This document shows positions 19,073-28,205 of a stretch of DNA of 64,000 bases, piece after piece. Position 1 is the stretch's first letter. Each line of letters starts with the position of its first letter. This DNA is from Escherichia coli (GTDB taxonomy: Bacteria > Pseudomonadota > Gammaproteobacteria > Enterobacterales > Enterobacteriaceae), in the NCBI RefSeq assembly GCF_016026235.1, contig NZ_CP065613.1; one strand, written 5' to 3'. The position numbers and the translations under genes are program-made. The notes beneath the pieces are model-generated. The model ran no database searches, had not been told where the DNA came from, and saw nothing but the letters and a program-made list of their open reading frames with translations.

Positions 19073-19157
19073 GCCGAAGTGGCGAAATCGGTAGACGCAG
19101 TTGATTCAAAATCAACCGTAGAAATACGTGCCGGTTCGAGTCCGGCCTTCGGCACCA
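19073..19157 (+). tRNA. leuX: tRNA-Leu (anticodon CAA)
   Basis: 85-nt sequence GCCGAAGTGGCGAAATCGGTAGACGCAGTTGATTCAAAATCAACC...GGCACCA with CAA anticodon loop, long variable arm and 3' CCA. Confidence 0.9.
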
Positions 19158-19320
19158 TTAGTACTTCCAAGAACATCCGAGAAAGTCCAATTATTCCTTA
19201 AAAATCAATGCTTGCAGCGACTTTTACGTCCTGTGTCTTCCGAGGTTGTCCGTTGAAATCCGGATGTTATTGGGGGCATAATTGGGGGCATCTTAACTTC
19301 GATTAGAAATGTGCCCCCAA

Positions 19321-20577
19321 ATGAAGCTTAACGCCAGACAGGTCGAGACCGCAAAGCCAAAAGACAAAACCTACAAAATGGCCGATGGTGGCGGTTTGTA
19401 TCTTGAGGTTTCGGTCAAAGGTTCCAAATACTGGCGCATGAAATACAGACGTCCCTCTGACAAAAAAGAGGATCGCCTCGCTTTTGGTGTTTGGCCTACT
19501 GTGACGCTTGCTCAGGCAAGAGCAAAACGCGATGAAGCTAAAAAGCTTTTAGTACAGGGCATAGACCCAAAAGTCGTACAAAAAGAAGCTCAGGCCGAGA
19601 ATTCGGGGGCATATACTTTTGAAACTATCGCCCGAGAATGGCATGCCAGTAACAAGCGTTGGAGTGAAGACCATCGATCGCGTGTTCTTCGCTATCTTGA
19701 GCTTTATATCTTTCCTCATATTGGTTCGTCCGACATTCGGCAGCTTAAAACCAGCCACCTGTTAACCCCGATTAAAAAAGTTGATGCCAGTGGCAAACAC
19801 GATGTCGCTCAGCGCCTGCAACAGCGCGTCACGGCCATTATGCGTTATGCCGTACAGAACGATTACATCGACTCAAATCCAGCCAGCGATATGGCCGGTG
19901 CGCTATCGACAACCAAAGCGCGACATTACCCTGCTTTACCTTCTAGCCGGTTCCCTGAGTTTCTTGCACGTCTTGCTGCCTATCGCGGCCGCAAAATGAC
20001 GCGTATTGCAGTCGAGTTATCTCTACTTACCTTCGTTCGCTCTAGTGAGATGCGATTTGCCCGATGGGATGAGTTTGATTTTGATAACGCCTGCTGGCGG
20101 ATACCGGCGCGGCGTGAAGAAATCGAAGGTGTGCGTTACTCCTATCGTGGGATGAAGATGAAAGAGGAACATATTGTTCCATTGAGCACTCAGGCTCTAG
20201 CTTTGCTGGATGAGTTGAAGAAGCTTAGTGGAGATAATCCTAGACTGTTTCCCGGTGATCATGATCCCAATAAAGTTATGAGCGAAAACACAGTTAATAA
20301 TGCGCTCAGGACTATGGGCTACGACACACAAACGGAAGTATGTGGGCATGGTTTTAGAACAATGGCGCGTGGTGCTTTGGGGGAGTCGGGGCTTTGGAGT
20401 GATGATGCGATAGAACGTCAGTTAAGCCACTCGGAGCGCAATAATGTTCGTGCAGCTTATATCCATACTTCAGAGCATTTGGACGAACGTCGATTGATGA
20501 TGCAATGGTGGGCGGATTTCCTATCAGCAAATCGTGAGACTTTCGTAACACCATTTGATTTTGCAAAAAAATATTAA
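19321..20577 (+). CDS. intB: P4-type tyrosine integrase
   Basis: Begins MKLNARQVETAKPKDKTYK; C-terminal catalytic region with HGFR...R motifs; lies immediately 3' of a tRNA gene. Confidence 0.9.
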   Translation: MKLNARQVETAKPKDKTYKMADGGGLYLEVSVKGSKYWRMKYRRPSDKKEDRLAFGVWPTVTLAQARAKRDEAKKLLVQGIDPKVVQKEAQAENSGAYTFETIAREWHASNKRWSEDHRSRVLRYLELYIFPHIGSSDIRQLKTSHLLTPIKKVDASGKHDVAQRLQQRVTAIMRYAVQNDYIDSNPASDMAGALSTTKARHYPALPSSRFPEFLARLAAYRGRKMTRIAVELSLLTFVRSSEMRFARWDEFDFDNACWRIPARREEIEGVRYSYRGMKMKEEHIVPLSTQALALLDELKKLSGDNPRLFPGDHDPNKVMSENTVNNALRTMGYDTQTEVCGHGFRTMARGALGESGLWSDDAIERQLSHSERNNVRAAYIHTSEHLDERRLMMQWWADFLSANRETFVTPFDFAKKY

Positions 20578-20668: not shown

Positions 20669-23409
20669 ATGATTACAAAAGATATAGTTGTTAGTGCATA
20701 TAATTGTCTTAAGTCATATGCTTACTACGAAAACTTAAATTTTTTCCTAAAGGAAGAAATCGCTCAATTTGAAGATTCTCTCTATGACGAAAAAATAGAA
20801 AAAGTGGTTGATTTTTTTGAAAATAATAATGACATTAACTTTAATGAGTGGCTAAATAAAATTGATGTTGAATTATTACCAAAAAAAATTGATAGCCATT
20901 TGGATATTGAGCAAACGAGCGGAGCTCTTTTTTTAAGTAATAATAAGACATCAGATGAATACAAAGTAGGTGCTGTAAATTATTTGATCGTTGCTCCTAT
21001 TGAAATATATTTAATAGAAACACTCTGGTCTATCTTTGTTGGTTCAATGCTAGATGACAAGTTTTCTGATTCGGTTTATGGAAATAGAATATCAAAAGTA
21101 ATAAAAAATATTCTAAGAATAGTTTCGATGCGCCAAAAAACTCCTCAAAAAATATCTTTGAAAGATACATTGATAATTATAATAAATGGCGAGATGGTGG
21201 TATCGATAAAGCGATAGAAGTTATAGAAAAAGAGCGAAATGATGTTGCAATTCTTTCTCTGGATCTTAAGGGTTTTTATTATAATATAGATATAGATTTT
21301 GATGCCATTGATAGAATTATTGACGAAGAACAATTAGAAGAAATTAAAGCTCTTTCTATGTTGTTGAATAGTAAATTGAGGTTGATGCATCAAAAATACA
21401 GAGAGAAAATATCTCCATATATTGGTGTGACACATTCAACTCCTTCATCAAAAGGCATTCCAATTGGATTTACTTCTTCTGCCATATTATCTAATTGGTA
21501 TTTAATGGGTTTTGATAAAGATATTAAATCAAAAATTAACCCATCGTACTACGGTCGCTATGTGGATGATATTCTTTTAGTTTTTTCATCCCCGGACATT
21601 AAAAAAGAAGATAAAGGTGAAGAAGTAATAAAATTCATAGAGCGAACCCTTAATGGATTCATTAAACAGGCAGCGAATGATGAGAAAGGCTTTACGTTGA
21701 CCGAGAGTTATCATGAATTACCAATTCAAAAGGATAAATTGATTTTTCATTATTTCAATAAAGATCATAGTTTGGCTGGTTTACAAGTCTTCAAACAAGA
21801 AATTGAGAACAGAAGCAGTGCATTTCGTTTTTTACCGGAAGAACATATATCTAGCGATCTCGATAAATTTGCTTATGATATATTACTTGATGGTTCGGCA
21901 AATAAATTTAGAAGTATTGTAGGTTTGGCAGAGAATGAAACTGAATTATCAAAATATATATCATCACATATCTTAGCTCATAGGCTTTGCAATCTTCCAT
22001 CGAATGAGAATACCTTAAAGCAAATAACGCTGTTTTTTAAAGGTGAAAATTCTCTAAGGTTCAGTCGGTTATGGGAGAAAGTTCTATCGTATACATTAAT
22101 TACAAGAAAATATGGATTTTCAATCGCCTTTTACAAACAAATTAAAGAATCAATTAATAAAATTAAGTGGAAGGAAGGTGATAGTGTTATATCTCCAAAA
22201 CTTAAAAATGGAATGCAGAAATACATTGATATTTCTCTTTGTTTGAATTTGGCTTTGTTAGATTTAAATGTCATTTTAGGTGATAAAGAGCCACAAAATA
22301 GAGCTTTGGAAGGTTTGAAATCTTTAATTAAACAGTCCGATGGAATGTCTGTTCTAATTGAAAGATTTAGAAGCAGTAATTTGATTCGTCATAATCTAGT
22401 GTCTTGGCCTTTAGCTAACTATACTAAATATAAAGGAGATCTTACTGAGGAGAATTTATACAGTAAGATGCATGGTATTCCACTTGATAATGATAAATTA
22501 AATAAAACCCCTAGATATATTCATGCTGATGAAAAGCAGCTTTTCGATTTGATTGATGCTCTTCATACAAGAAAACTACATAAGTTTACGCATGAAAATA
22601 AGCATCACTTAAAAAATTGCTCTGTTACTAAGATAAAAGATAATAAAGCTCTTGAAATAAAGGTAGGAATTGATGATAGAAGTGGTAATGACACAATAAA
22701 AGTTGCGTTGGCAAATATGAGAGTTGAACGTCGTAATATTGAAAGTGCTTGCAGAAAAGATCAGTCTCCAAATTTAAGTTATGAACGACAAAGAAACCTT
22801 TATCGTATTCTCAACTCGGCAACTGAAGAAAATGTGCAGATATTACTACTCCCTGAGTTATCAATTCCTGTGTCGTGGTTACCTTTTATGGCAGCACATT
22901 CAAGGAGAAAACAAATATCTTTGATTTTCGGATTAGAGCATTGGGTTATTAACGAACGCGCATATAATATTTTGGTTGAAATGCTGCCTTATACTTCAAA
23001 CTTTAAACACAAATCCAGTATGTTAGTTTTTCGAGTGAAAAATCATTACGCACCTAGTGAGATTACGATGCTGAATTCTTTAAGGTTAAAAATATCCTCT
23101 CCTAAACCTAGTAAACAACGGTATCATTTGATTAAGTGGAAAAACGTATCATTTTCTACATACAACTGTTTTGAACTGGCTAATATCGAGCATAGAGCAT
23201 TATTTCGTTCGCAGTTGGATATTTTATTTGCTTGCGTATGGAATCAAGATATAAATTATTATCAACATATCACTGAGTCAGCGACACGGGATTTACATTG
23301 TTATGTGGCTCAATCGAATACTTCGCATTATGGCGGTTCTTGTGTTCTACAACCGACCAGTAGCACTATTTCAAATAAGATATATGTAAAAGGTGGGGAA
23401 AACCACTGA
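20669..23409 (+). pseudogene. reverse transcriptase-nitrilase fusion (DRT1/UG1-like), with a -1 frame change near 21130-21155 and 3' end severed by IS insertion
   Basis: Frame switch between ORF 20669..21217 and the frame carrying RT motif A (AILSLDLKGFYYNID) and motif C (YGRYVDDILLVF); C-terminal nitrilase-superfamily triad motifs LLLPELSIP, FRVKNHYAPSE, STYNCFELAN; stop codon TGA supplied by the IS end. Confidence 0.7.
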
Positions 23410-24700
23410 GGGATCCCCAGAAAATTTAGTAAACCATTATCATATTGGTATACCGTTGCTGTAGAACTTTCAGCCCTGCGTCAAGTGACAGTGTGTTTAG
23501 TATGAGTGGAGAATGTCGAATCACATTCTCCGCCAGTTTTAATAACGAGATGACTCGCCTGTGCTTCACTGTATTTGCCTGATATTTATGATGTATCCCT
23601 TTGTTTTCCAGGCTGAAACCGCTTAACCACATAATGATACTGGCTAATGTTGCGATCAGACTCAATACCGTGACCCGCCCGGATGAATGACTGGCACCAA
23701 ACCGTAGTCCAAATCCCCAGCGAGGATTTTTTTCATCCCTGAAATTTTGCTCAATTTGCATTCTACGGCTGTATAATTTCATTACCTGTTTTGGCGAGAA
23801 CTCAGTACTGTTTGTGAAAATAAACCATGGTGATTTCCCGGCAGTACGAGCTTTAGCCGTCACCGATGGTCTGGTTGCTCTTTCCTTCGAGCGTTTAAAT
23901 CTACGACCTTTAGGCTTACTTTTATAAAGATAAAAATGCCCTTCATGTTGTGCATTTTTATCTCGACCCAGCAGGCCTTCACCTAAATAAATTGCTGTCG
24001 TTGATGCTTTTGTGCCTGAGTCCGACACCTTTTCCCAGCCATTACCAACATTGTAATAATGATTGCCCAGTACCCGGCAAATATAGGTCCAGCCACGGGA
24101 GCGGAGCTGTTGGAACCATCGCCCCTGAAAACCGGCATCTGTAATAACAATGACATCAGTCCCGGGGGAAAAGCACTCAGCAAGCGATTCCAGAAAACGC
24201 TCATGTACATCTGCATTCGCTGTCTGTGATGATGGAACGACACAACTCATCAACGGTAAAGAACGCCCGTCACATGCCAGGCTTGCCCGCAAAAGCTGAA
24301 AACGAGAGGCATGATAAGCACTCCAGTCAATGAGTATCACAACACGAGACATTCCCCGCGTAATCTTTTGGGTAATTCGCTGAAAAATGGTGGAAACCTC
24401 ATTTTGCAAATGTCGATTCCCCAACAGTCGATCCACCCGCTTTATTTTGTTTTTAACTGATGCCGTACCGGTTAAATGACGCCCGATACTGGTAAGTGTG
24501 AGGGAAGCGCCATTTATTACAGCATTAGTTGCGTCAATCAGTGATTTTTGACGGTAAAGATGCAAAGGGGCCAGTATGTTGTTAAGGAAATTTTGGCATA
24601 ATGAACGTGCAGGCATAGTGGTGATCTCCTTGAAATTGTTAGCACAATCAATTAGATCACATCTCACTATGCCTGTCTTGTTTTCTGGGGATTCCTCAGG
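23406..24700 (-). mobile_element. IS4-family insertion sequence (IS10-like), copy 2, flanked by 9-bp direct repeat GGAAAACCA
   Basis: Same element as copy 1 at a constant offset; duplicated 9-mer at 23397..23405 and 24701..24709. Confidence 0.85.
23426..24616 (-). CDS. IS4-family (IS10-like) DDE transposase
   Basis: Identical protein to copy 1; the ORF-track N-terminal extension crosses the IS boundary and is not part of the gene. Confidence 0.8.
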   Translation of the reverse strand: MPARSLCQNFLNNILAPLHLYRQKSLIDATNAVINGASLTLTSIGRHLTGTASVKNKIKRVDRLLGNRHLQNEVSTIFQRITQKITRGMSRVVILIDWSAYHASRFQLLRASLACDGRSLPLMSCVVPSSQTANADVHERFLESLAECFSPGTDVIVITDAGFQGRWFQQLRSRGWTYICRVLGNHYYNVGNGWEKVSDSGTKASTTAIYLGEGLLGRDKNAQHEGHFYLYKSKPKGRRFKRSKERATRPSVTAKARTAGKSPWFIFTNSTEFSPKQVMKLYSRRMQIEQNFRDEKNPRWGFGLRFGASHSSGRVTVLSLIATLASIIMWLSGFSLENKGIHHKYQANTVKHRRVISLLKLAENVIRHSPLILNTLSLDAGLKVLQQRYTNMIMVY

Positions 24701-24709
24701 GGAAAACCA

Positions 24710-24848
24710 TTGCATCCTAACTACTACTTTAAATATATATGCATTGAGAGAGGCTCAATATCGTTCATTCAGAATTAACTCCGATACTATTAAACACAAT
24801 CCTCCAGGGTTTGACTATAATGCTCTATTAGAGCGAGGTGAGAAATGA
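24710..24848 (+). pseudogene. displaced 3' end (last 45 codons) of the RT-nitrilase gene
   Basis: After removing the IS and one duplicated 9-mer the RT frame continues ...GGENH-CILTTTLNIYALREAQYRSF...ERGEK to TGA at 24846..24848. Confidence 0.65.
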
Positions 24849-25534
24849 GTAGCTTTTGGGAAGGTATTTTGTCATCAAGCATTTCATTTGCAATTATTGG
24901 ATTTGTTTGTAAGGCTTTTTTACAACATATTGATAAAAGAGAGTTAGAATCATTTAAAAATAAGTTGAAATATGAAAGTGAACAGAGAATTAAAGAGGAT
25001 GAACGTGCTTATAATTTTAAAAAAGCAAGAGATCTTGAAATCGGACGTTGGGGGTTAACATTACTTAGTGCTGCAAATGGTTTTTTAGGAAGGCTATGTT
25101 ATATTAAAGATCACAATGACCTATCGTCGGATCAATATTATATTGATAGTACAAGATTCTATCTATGCCAATATTTTTGCTGGGTACATCAATTCAGGAA
25201 AAATAGAGATTCATCTGTATTTTCACCAACTAATGATGAAATGTTAATAACTGAATTAATCAAAAATATTTCTATAGCCCTACGAGAGAACGATATTGGT
25301 TTTCCTTGTATTAGATCTCTTGAACAAAAGTATATAGGTGAAAGCCTTAGCATTGGTGCTGAATGTATGTCCTATAAAGATTTTATCGATTCTAAAGTAT
25401 TAGAAAACTATGCACCTCTAAATGATTTTGTTGAAGCAATTCTACAAAATAATAATAAAGATTATATCGATAAACTCGTTATCCCATTCCAAGATCTCAA
25501 GACCAGATTTGATGCGGCATTACAAAATAAATGA
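24845..25534 (+). CDS. hypothetical protein with N-terminal transmembrane helix, translationally coupled to the RT-nitrilase gene
   Basis: 229-aa ORF; ATGA start/stop overlap with the RT tail; hydrophobic segment ILSSSISFAIIGFVCKAFL; AT-rich like the RT gene. Confidence 0.6.
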   Translation: MSSFWEGILSSSISFAIIGFVCKAFLQHIDKRELESFKNKLKYESEQRIKEDERAYNFKKARDLEIGRWGLTLLSAANGFLGRLCYIKDHNDLSSDQYYIDSTRFYLCQYFCWVHQFRKNRDSSVFSPTNDEMLITELIKNISIALRENDIGFPCIRSLEQKYIGESLSIGAECMSYKDFIDSKVLENYAPLNDFVEAILQNNNKDYIDKLVIPFQDLKTRFDAALQNK

Positions 25535-25735
25535 TTTTTTTACCTGCGCGCAATGCTCTCCCCGCCTCGCCCGCCCGCTTTGCGGGGCGGTTTTAATGCA
25601 GTTGCACTGACACGCTCAGACCGCGCCGGGAATGGCGCGGTCTGCAGAAAATGAGGCAGGGAAACGCATGCAAAGCCATGCACCTTATCGATGCATGGCT
25701 TTTTTCAGTAAAAACAGGCGGATTTTCGGGGAATT

Positions 25736-26279
25736 TTACACAGACTGACGTGATGCCAGTTGCGCACTTTTACGCGAAAAAATCATGTTCTGCGCAGGGG
25801 TGAATTTTTCACGGCTGTCATCCACCGAAGCCGCGTCAGGCCTGAATCCGATGGTCGTTAAAATGTCGCTATCCTGTGCGGAATAATTAATTTTTTCACC
25901 CTTCGCAAGCCAGGACAGGAGGGCTTCACGCAGGGCATCTGTGGCACGCTGTATGGCACAGTTTCGGGCAATGGCCGTCAGCTCACTGTAGCCCATCAGC
26001 TCCGGTGCCAGTGCCGCCGCCAGTGCTGTGCCGTGCTGCTGCATAAAATCATTCAGCCGGTCGCGGATGCTGATGTGCTGAACGGCTTCATGCGAACGAA
26101 TATAACGACCGGCGGCCTGATTCACCTGCCATTTTCTGACTTCGATAATATTGCGTAATTCGTCCAGGCGACTGACGTTTCTGCCTTCTCCTGACAGAAG
26201 CCGCAGATATTCCTGTTCGGCCGCAGCCAGCTCATTTTTGCGTTGCAGCCATGCTGCTTTGTTATTCTGACAGGTGTCA
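25736..26279 (-). pseudogene. psu: P4 Psu-like (polarity suppression) protein, 5' end truncated by IS1
   Basis: 180-aa alpha-helical product recognised as P4 Psu-like; the first codons of ORF 25736..26293 are read from IS1 terminal sequence, so the native start is missing. Confidence 0.55.
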
Positions 26280-26334
26280 GGTAATGCTGCCAACTTACTG
26301 ATTTAGTGTATGATGGTGATTTTAAGGTGCTTGC

Positions 26335-26610
26335 GTGGCTTCCATTTCCATCAGATGTGCTTCCTGCTCCGCTACTGAAGGCGTGGTGCGTAACGGCAAA
26401 AGCACTGCCGGACATCAGCGCTATCTCTGCTCTCATTGCCGTAAAACATGGCAACTGCAGTTCACTTACACCGCCTCTCAGCCCGGTACGCACCAGAAAA
26501 TCATTGATATGGCCATGAATGGCGTCGGATGTCGCGCCAGTGCACGCATTATGGGCGTTGGCCTCAACACGGTTTTACGTCACTTAAAAAACTCAGGCCG
26601 CAGTCGGTAA
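26335..26610 (+). CDS. insA: IS1 InsA
   Basis: 91-aa product with zinc-finger CxxC...CxxC and HTH, matching InsA. Confidence 0.9.
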
Positions 26611-27032
26611 CCTCGCGCATACAACCGGGCAGTGATGTGATTGTCTGCGCTGAAATGGACGAACAGTGGGGCTACGTCGGTGCTAAATCACGTCAGCGCT
26701 GGCTGTTTTACGCGTATGACAGGATACGGAGGACGGTTGTGGCGCACGTCTTCGGTGAACGCACTCTGGCCACACTGGAGCGTCTTCTGAGCCTGCTGTC
26801 GGCCTTTGAGGTCGTGGTATAGATGACGGATGGCTGGCCGCTGTATGAATCACGCCTGAAGGGAAAGCTGCACGTTATCAGCAAGCGTTACACTCAGCGC
26901 ATTGAGCGACATAATCTGAATCTGAGACAACATCTGGCAAGGCTGGGACGGAAGTCACTGTCGTTCTCAAAATCGGTGGAGCTGCATGACAAGGTCATCG
27001 GGCATTATCTGAACATAAAACACTATCAGTAA
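26529..27032 (+). pseudogene. insB: IS1 InsB with internal TAG stop at 26820..26822
   Basis: InsB frame is split into ORFs 26529..26822 and 26823..27032 by one stop where IS1 normally has a Trp codon (VVIWMTDGW). Confidence 0.7.
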
Positions 27033-27345
27033 GTTGGAGTCATTACCCGGCGTGCGTGCCAGGTACAGTCGTTCGGCTGGAAAAATACGGGGGCTGAGCC
27101 TGCTGGCAACACTGAGCACAATAGTGCGGTGGCTTATTGGCTATCACGCTTAAAATAAAGGGGTAGATCTGAGACAGCAGGCCAACAGAATTAAAACGCG
27201 GCGGGTAATATCGTATCTGACATTAGCGAAGAATATCTTGCGATACTCCTCGCTAATTTTAAAACGAATGGTGCTGATCACCGTTCTTAATCACTTCGCC
27301 AGAACCGACCATAATATGGTGTTGGTTTATTAGCGCTGATTCATG

Positions 27346-27358
27346 GGGATCCCTCAGT
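27346..27358. repeat. solo 13-bp match (GGGGATCCCTCAG) to the terminal repeat of the IS4-family element
   Basis: Exact reverse-complement of the IS left terminus (CTGAGGGATCCCC) with no adjacent IS body. Confidence 0.4.
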
Positions 27359-27380
27359 GCTTTTGCGGTTTTTTATATCT

Positions 27381-28205
27381 TTAAAGCAGTAGCGGTAGGG
27401 TCGCGCTGGCAGTTTGCTGGCTCACATCGCTGTACTTATGATCCAGCGCAATCAGCGATGTGGTGAGTAACTCTACCAACAGCATAACTCCCACCTTGGC
27501 ATTCAGCGCGCCAGCGCTCAAGGGGCCTTCCGGTTTGGCCGCGACCAGTTGAATATCACTCAGCGAAGCTAACGGACTGCGCGGCGTATTACTCAGCGCC
27601 AGTACACGCACACCTTGCTTACGCGCTAGTTTTACGACATGCAGCAGATCGCGCGTGGATCCAGAACTGGAAATCGCCACCACGAACGTGTTTTTACTAA
27701 GTGTTGTGGCGTTCATGGCAGCACGATGCATATCGCTGAACAATTGTGCGGGTTTCCCCAGACGCAGGAGTTTGTAATGTAAATACTCCCCCAGAATAGC
27801 ACTGGCTGCTACGCCATAAATCTGTACTGACTGAGCCTGATGCAGTGCAAGCGTGGCTGCTTCCAGCAAGGTCCTATCGAGTAATTTTGCTGTGTCCTGT
27901 AGTGCTTGCACGGATTCATTGACCACATTGTCAATCTCATCACCGCCGTACTCTACAGACTGTACTTGTCGGAGATCGAGTGCAAGCGCCATTTTGAATT
28001 CGTTATAGCCCTTACACCCCAGCGTTCGGCACAGACGTGTGACGCTAGCCTCGCTGGTGCCGCTTTCACGCGCCAGTTCGGTAATCGTCAGGTAGACAAC
28101 TTTTGCCGGATCGCTAAGTACAAACTCTCCCAGCTTCTGTTGAGTTCGACTATATCCATCAACGCTCTGGCGCAATCTCAGCAGCAGGTTTTCATTTTCT
28201 GGCAT
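27381..28205 (-). CDS. RpiR/MurR-family transcriptional regulator (HTH + SIS domain)
   Basis: 274-aa ORF; N-terminal HTH (LTITELARESGTSEASVTRL) and SIS sugar-phosphate-binding region; divergent from the PTS gene. Confidence 0.8.
   Translation of the reverse strand: MPENENLLLRLRQSVDGYSRTQQKLGEFVLSDPAKVVYLTITELARESGTSEASVTRLCRTLGCKGYNEFKMALALDLRQVQSVEYGGDEIDNVVNESVQALQDTAKLLDRTLLEAATLALHQAQSVQIYGVAASAILGEYLHYKLLRLGKPAQLFSDMHRAAMNATTLSKNTFVVAISSSGSTRDLLHVVKLARKQGVRVLALSNTPRSPLASLSDIQLVAAKPEGPLSAGALNAKVGVMLLVELLTTSLIALDHKYSDVSQQTASATLPLLL

Follow-up and report, generated by a model that had tools for sequence, protein, structure and literature searches.

A psu-like reading frame that runs into a copy of IS1 near the tRNA gene leuX of Escherichia coli raises the question of what this insertion sequence replaced, how far the loss extends, and by which route it came about. 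The locus lies in a stretch of 64,000 nucleotides (the window), for which the first-pass annotation had proposed that IS1-mediated deletion removed the remainder of a P4-like satellite and left an integrase, cargo, and a psu fragment. The reading favoured here, at a probability of roughly 0.9, is an IS1-bounded deletion in a P4-like satellite at leuX, both ends of which are the termini of a single IS1, with a moderate preference for recombination between two IS1 copies as its cause.

The satellite remnant at leuX

The left part of the locus, from leuX to the terminus of IS1, consists of the following features:

19073-19157 (+ strand): leuX, tRNA-Leu(CAA), the satellite integration site on the attL side (ARAGORN; tRNA-Leu in collinear relatives)
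19309-20577 (+ strand): P4-type tyrosine integrase, apparently intact (Pfam Arm-DNA-bind_3, Phage_int_M, and Phage_integrase; annotation of relatives)
20669-23405 (+ strand): cargo gene 1, an RT_UG5-nitrilase reverse transcriptase (RT), pseudogene (PADLOC match of a homologue, alignment, and collinearity)
23406-24698 (- strand): IS4-family insertion sequence of 1293 bp inside the RT gene (NCBIfam transpos_IS4_2, 360 bits; empty site in L007)
24845-25534 (+ strand): cargo gene 2, an RT-associated transmembrane effector (RTasTM), intact ORF (PADLOC, E = 5e-164, full length)
25572-26279 (- strand): stretch homologous to the cos-proximal end of phage P4, holding psu' (megablast against phage records)
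25736-26279 (- strand): psu', codons 11-190 of 190 plus the third base of codon 10 (Pfam PF07455, BLASTP, tblastn, and junction comparison)

The stretch at 25572-26279 has 98.9% nucleotide identity to positions 10917-11624 of P4 (X51522; megablast), and the homology to the right end of P4 begins at 25572, beside a GC-rich hairpin with a T-run. P4 cos-proximal sequence is kept between the cargo and psu' (window 25550-25590), so that the remnant still carries the packaging-site region, though without replication or excision. The core set of P4-like satellites comprises int, psu, delta, sid, alpA, epsilon, and alpha (PMC8628076). With the proteins of the intact leuX satellite of strain M19 as tblastn queries, only int and psu' were recovered from the window, and delta, sid, epsilon, alpha, and attR were absent from all 64 kb when DNA comparison was combined with this search. 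The tRNA gene leuX is present; the attR copy of the M19 type is not, the sole 14-mer match to the leuX 3' end in the 64-kb window being leuX itself. Because the genes for replication, immunity, capsid size/remodelling, and activation were lost together with attR, the remnant cannot excise or be packaged, and the element is what is left of a P4-like satellite, not a functional one.

The two cargo genes match the RT_UG5-nitrilase and RTasTM cassette of PADLOC, with an RT frame that is no longer intact. An intact RT homologue of 958 aa in strain E1316 matches PADLOC RT_UG5-nitrilase over its full length; aligned to it, the window RT has a 1-nt deletion near 21102 that brings a stop after codon 182, and the IS insertion displaces the last 139 nt of the gene to 24710-24848. 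The IS4-family element responsible has duplicated 11 bp of its target (GGGGAAAACCA, at 23395-23405 and 24699-24709). Given the frameshift and the IS4-family insertion, the RT cargo of the window strain is predicted to be dead. An RT of unknown group 5 with a C-terminal nitrilase, paired with a transmembrane effector, was reported from the int-psu hotspot of P4 by Rousset et al. 2022 (PMC9122126), and the hotspot has already been described (PMC9122126, PMC8628076); the same two genes lie between int and psu in the window, where, unlike in the reported cassette, the RT is inactivated. RT pseudogenes were also seen in M19 (internal stop), JNE170426 (frameshift), FDAARGOS_943 (IS1A insertion plus frameshift), and E1739, and among the loci examined an intact RT occurs in E1316 only.

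The cargo-psu segment is carried by 30 complete E. coli genomes, 13 of which have the same satellite intact at leuX, with psu, delta, and sid, in the order leuX, int, RT_UG5-nitrilase, TM effector, cos, psu, delta, sid ... alpha, attR. Two of the intact satellites were inspected in full (M19 and JNE170426), and in both the order is leuX, P4-type integrase, RT, a 229-aa protein, psu, delta, sid, an HTH gene, ash, icd, three small ORFs, the alpha primase-helicase, and attR, followed by the integrase of a second island. Collinearity of the window with M19 holds from a point upstream of leuX up to precisely 26279, with the IS4-family insertion as the sole break; up to this breakpoint the window is 98-99.9% identical to the M19 and JNE170426 elements, following them base for base to the terminus of IS1. 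In M19 the satellite extends 6.8 kb beyond this point and ends in attR, where the 3' end of leuX recurs in degenerate form (L007, ~22217-22240). The loss amounts to at least 6.8 kb of satellite, together with attR and part of the next island; the 13 intact relatives and the collinearity to 26279 support the earlier proposal that an integrase, cargo, and a psu fragment are all that was left. JNE170426 was considered as a model of the neighbourhood before the deletion and rejected, as its content downstream of the intact satellite differs (fimbrial, pgt, and fec genes, with no RpiR island within 50 kb).

The IS1 copy and the psu frame fused to it

The features from the psu' boundary rightwards are:

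26280-26293 (- strand): IS1-derived 5' extension of the psu ORF, TTG GCA GCA TTA CC (junction comparison)
26280-27047 (+ strand): IS1 (IS1F type), complete, 768 bp, without target-site duplication (terminal repeats and flank comparison)
26335-26610 (+ strand): insA of this IS1 (Pfam match)
27048-27360 (no strand assigned): right flank, a decayed IS4-family transposase remnant of the RpiR/PTS/nanE island (comparison with IS1-free genomes)
27381-28205 (- strand): MurR/RpiR-family regulator, the first intact gene to the right of the deletion (Pfam HTH_6 and SIS; annotation)

The psu-like ORF (25736-26293, - strand; 558 nt, 185 aa) takes its TTG start codon, and 14 bases in all, from IS1, in agreement with the first-pass annotation, in which its first codons were described as IS1-derived. 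Its residues 6-185 align to residues 11-190 of an intact 190-aa Psu from a satellite at ssrA (179/180 identical; BLASTP), the Psu of M19 as a tblastn query gives 100% identity over residues 11-190, and the ORF matches the Pfam Psu profile at full length (PF07455, E = 6.6e-86, profile positions 6-181 of 182). The junction with IS1 falls inside codon 10: intact psu reads ATGGAAAGCACAGCCTTACAGCAGGCCTT followed by TGACAC and the window ...AGTAAGTTGGCAGCATTACC followed by TGACAC, IS1 having taken the place of the first 29 nt of the gene, native ATG included. With a TAA in frame 4 codons ahead of the TTG, the window has no alternative start for psu. The absence of the native start was correctly recognised in the earlier reading, with the refinement that the loss from psu is limited to 10 codons; besides residues 1-10 and the start, the fragment has lost its place as the last gene of sid-delta-psu, as delta and sid are gone.

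The known Rho-contact residues of Psu (R43, D49, E56, and helix alpha7, 170-186; PMC11718236) all lie inside the retained residues 11-190. Having lost the operon promoter and start codon, psu' may conceivably be active if expressed, but there is no hint of expression. The IS1-derived 5' extension contains no convincing ribosome-binding site, and the sole promoter-like site at the psu'/IS1 junction is a hybrid with its -35 in the IS1 end (26293-26264, - strand), which was rejected as a promoter of the psu ORF because the transcription start would fall downstream of the TTG. That the chimeric ORF is nevertheless translated via read-through or IS1-borne signals and acts as a domesticated constitutive inhibitor of Rho-dependent termination is very improbable. 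As it keeps every known Rho-contact residue it could inhibit such termination if translated, and this role, if true, could be why the psu fragment stays unchanged in 17 genomes of an enterotoxigenic-type lineage. In RefSeq the chimeric ORF is WP_016234065.1 (e.g. L010 20892-21449), which bears the PGAP label ‘phage polarity suppression protein’ and no pseudogene flag; the practical value of the present analysis is a correction of this annotation to a 5'-truncated remnant fused to IS1 codons.

The IS1 has the expected size (768 bp) and imperfect terminal inverted repeats of ~23 bp (IRL, GGTAATGCTGCCAACTTACTGAT, 26280-26302; IRR, 27025-27047; 3 mismatches between the arms). It diverges by ~9% from IS1A, and its type is named IS1F by RefSeq in some strains. 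Both insA and insB have the expected Pfam domains and the A6C frameshift motif (TTAAAAAAC) is present near 26590, but a TAG nonsense codon at 26820-26822 cuts insB and with it the prospect of a functional InsAB' transposase. Judged by its sequence, the element is a member of IS1 that is predicted to be transposase-defective and non-autonomous. The same codon of insB is TGG in DEC5E, E1316, and E1739, while the corresponding IS1 copy in FDAARGOS_943 is annotated ‘internal stop’ and the TAG is also found in the IS1F of HH97 and in the fecI-adjoining IS1F of JNE170426 (L009 25723-26490). As it is common to IS1F copies at other loci, the defect probably predates the psu'-IS1 junction, and its distribution suggests that the IS1F copies in the region of the leuX island either have a common origin or have undergone gene conversion with one another.

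IS1 insertion normally duplicates 8-9 bp of target, occasionally more. The 9-bp flanks of the window IS1, CAGGTGTCA on the left (26271-26279) and CGGCGTGCG on the right (27048-27056), agree at 3/9 positions, in line with the mismatch first reported, and no direct repeat, longer or offset, is present within 30 bp on either side, where the sole shared word of at least 5 bp is CAGGT, at non-equivalent positions. Simple insertions served as controls: the IS4-family element of the window has its 11-bp duplication, and direct repeats border the IS1A copies of L005 and L010. The first of these IS1A copies, in strain SCPM-O-B-7615 (L005 9001-9768), lies in the hotspot gene of an otherwise intact P4-like satellite at ssrA and is flanked by an 11-bp direct repeat (TCACTACATCT), the usual length being 9 bp.

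Origin of the deletion

To the right of IS1 the window continues from 27048 with the IS4-family remnant, the RpiR-family regulator, a PTS transporter, and nanE. In IS1-free genomes (e.g. 13C1079T) the remnant extends leftwards across 27048, reading ...GAGCGTTTTGGTTT directly followed by CGGCGTGCG..., and IS1 therefore joins sequences that are not adjacent in any unrearranged genome. The relative orientation of leuX and the RpiR island is as in other strains, which indicates deletion and not inversion. Relative to the earlier reading, the deletion is found to pass attR into the neighbouring island, ending in the IS4-family remnant upstream of the RpiR gene. Many B2-type strains (S88, for example) have IS4-family elements elsewhere in the chromosome that are ~88% identical to this remnant (27053-27360), whose protein motif resembles that of the intact element at 23406-24698.

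Both junctions (psu'-IS1-remnant, 1.9 kb) are common to 16 other complete genomes from several studies and countries, at 98.9-99.9% identity. Dozens of IS1 copies are present in these strains and repeats are the usual cause of misjoins, so that a collapse of IS1 repeats could in principle have joined psu to the RpiR island during assembly; the identical structure in 16 independently assembled genomes excludes such an artefact, the chance of which is practically nil, and derived forms occur in two further strains (E1316 and E1739). The rest of the satellite might otherwise have been moved by IS1-mediated inversion or translocation to a place beside a second IS1 elsewhere in the chromosome, as IS-mediated inversions occur in IS1-rich genomes and the window is only 64 kb of this one. 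However, a junction of the IS1 right end with CAGGTGTCA and the 5' part of psu is absent from 5,426 complete E. coli genomes, including the 16 strains with this locus, each of the 17 genomes with the psu'-IS1 junction gave one single match to the cargo-psu query, and the unchanged orientation of leuX and the RpiR island likewise speaks against relocation, which is largely refuted and very improbable.

The lack of a target duplication has been ascribed to recombination between insertion sequences or to adjacent deletion (PMC11708052), and the term ‘IS1-mediated deletion’ used in the first-pass annotation covers both. It stands insofar as the deletion ends exactly at the termini of IS1; it does not separate the two mechanisms, and the founding event leaves no mark that would do so. 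In the favoured course of events, a P4-like satellite with the RT_UG5-nitrilase/TM defence cassette would have integrated at leuX, and two IS1 copies of the same orientation would have been present, one at the RpiR island edge, the other newly inserted in psu. Homologous recombination between them would have removed the interval as a circle, leaving one IS1 with one half-site from each insertion, which would explain why the 9-bp flanks are unrelated. Psu codons 1-10, delta, sid, the immunity and replication genes, alpha, and attR would have been lost in this step, along with the adjoining part of the next island up to the IS4-family remnant upstream of the RpiR gene. Two chimeric queries represented the precursor junctions (the IS4-family remnant plus CGGCGTGCG plus the IS1 left end, and the IS1 right end plus CAGGTGTCA plus the psu 5' end), and neither was covered to at least 80% in any of the 5,426 complete genomes. 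Such absence of the matching half-sites is expected for a deletion in which the interval was lost as a circle.

Sister strains carry later changes at the same IS1. In E1316 (IS1 at L006 9745-10512) the psu'-IS1 junction is kept and IS1 is bordered on the right by a truncated rbsK that lies ~13 kb further on; the E1316 IS1 has 15 differences from the window copy between positions 80 and 542, mostly to IS1A-type bases, and 13 differences from the FDAARGOS_943/HH97 copy. In E1739 (IS1 at L012 11383-12150) the junction of IS1 with the truncated rbsK is kept and the left flank lies inside the RT gene (window 22470), the differences from the E1316 IS1 being confined to the first 127 bp (16/16 IS1A-type) and one base at position 764. 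A change of flank accompanied by a swap of the adjoining IS1 segment is predicted by an IS1 × IS1 crossover and not by transposition. The mosaic IS1 of E1316 and E1739 is a record of successive crossovers of this kind, with a loss of ~13 kb to the right, as far as rbsK, followed by one of ~3.8 kb to the left, into the RT gene, and the two strains provide direct evidence, as read from their sequences, pointing to IS1 × IS1 homologous recombination at the leuX locus. With at least 40 matches to IS1 pieces in these strains, recombination partners are plentiful.

The founding event may alternatively have been an adjacent deletion, in which an IS1 resident at the RpiR island edge (27048) underwent intramolecular replicative transposition into a target in psu; the DNA in between would be deleted, and IS1 would keep its old right flank and gain a new left one. 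IS1 is well known as a classical source of adjacent deletions. The same signature, with the insertion sequence retained and the target duplication lost, has been described for such events (PMC11708052). The two-IS1 intermediate was not found among the 5,426 complete genomes, and the window IS1 is uniformly of the IS1F type with no mosaic signal of its own, both of which count against the recombination route. Many lineages also have a near-identical IS1F at this island edge, at a distance of 177 bp: its right junction in the widespread configuration of HH97, O55:H7 DEC5E, and many others (L001/L002 8774) is at window 27225, closer to the RpiR gene by this distance than that of the window IS1. 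The HH97 copy is 100% identical to that of FDAARGOS_943 and has no target duplication (CGAATGTCG on one side, AGCGAAGAA on the other), and to the left of IS1F in HH97 and DEC5E is a truncated STY4528-family island replication gene, missing its first ~140 profile positions. That this copy too truncates its neighbour suggests a long-resident IS1F eroding whatever lies to its left.

The leuX element of HH97 and DEC5E is an integrase/MobH island and not P4-like, and the gene to the left of their IS1, considered as another Psu, was rejected as such because it has no similarity and is the truncated STY4528-family protein. The window arrangement cannot have been derived from the HH97 type by deletion, as the 177 bp at 27048-27224 are kept in the window and absent in HH97.

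Several observations weigh against adjacent deletion. The premature stop in insB, common to copies at other loci, means that transposase would have to be provided in trans, and the IS1 enzyme is mainly cis-acting. The mosaic IS1 seen in the later deletions at the same IS1 is not a product of transposition, and a junction of IS1 with 27048 that has a left flank other than psu' was found in no genome. Adjacent deletion from a long-resident IS1F is a serious alternative, at somewhat less than even odds. We infer IS1 × IS1 recombination for the founding event with only moderate preference, because of the insB nonsense codon, the presence of the TAG in the IS1F copies of HH97 and JNE170426, and the IS1-rich nature of the strains.

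Relation to known elements

The locus agrees with described IS-bounded deletions that lack target duplications (PMC11708052) in having a complete, precisely bounded insertion sequence with unrelated flanks, in the loss of the intervening DNA, and in the stepwise extension of the deletion on either side in related strains. Nothing essential distinguishes it from these, its particulars being a transposase-defective IS1F and a mosaic IS1 that documents crossover. The satellite family, the insertion sequence, and the class of event are all already known, and the locus represents ordinary mobile-element decay, with a satellite that is not mobilisable and a defence cassette presumed dead in the window strain. 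It is a clear worked example of stepwise two-sided erosion of a tRNA-linked island by IS1, with the crossovers recorded in mosaic IS1, and may be of use in teaching and in the benchmarking of tools that call satellites or defence islands.

Phage P4 (X51522 / NC_001609) resembles the window in its psu region (98.9% nucleotide identity) and in the order int, hotspot cargo, cos, psu, which in the intact leuX satellites (M19, JNE170426) is preceded by leuX as it is here. In contrast to both, the window has nothing past psu codon 10 (delta, sid, the immunity region, epsilon, alpha, and attR), and its cargo differs from the gop/beta/cII of P4. In K-12 we take leuX to be followed by a cryptic P4-type integrase remnant (the intB region), presumably with neither a psu fragment nor RT cargo at this position, and an IS1F copy to lie beside the fec operon. 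The window and the K-12 intB region are alike in a P4-type integrase left at leuX, a decayed island downstream, and a resident copy of the IS1F type; the arrangement of fecI and IS1F is present in JNE170426.
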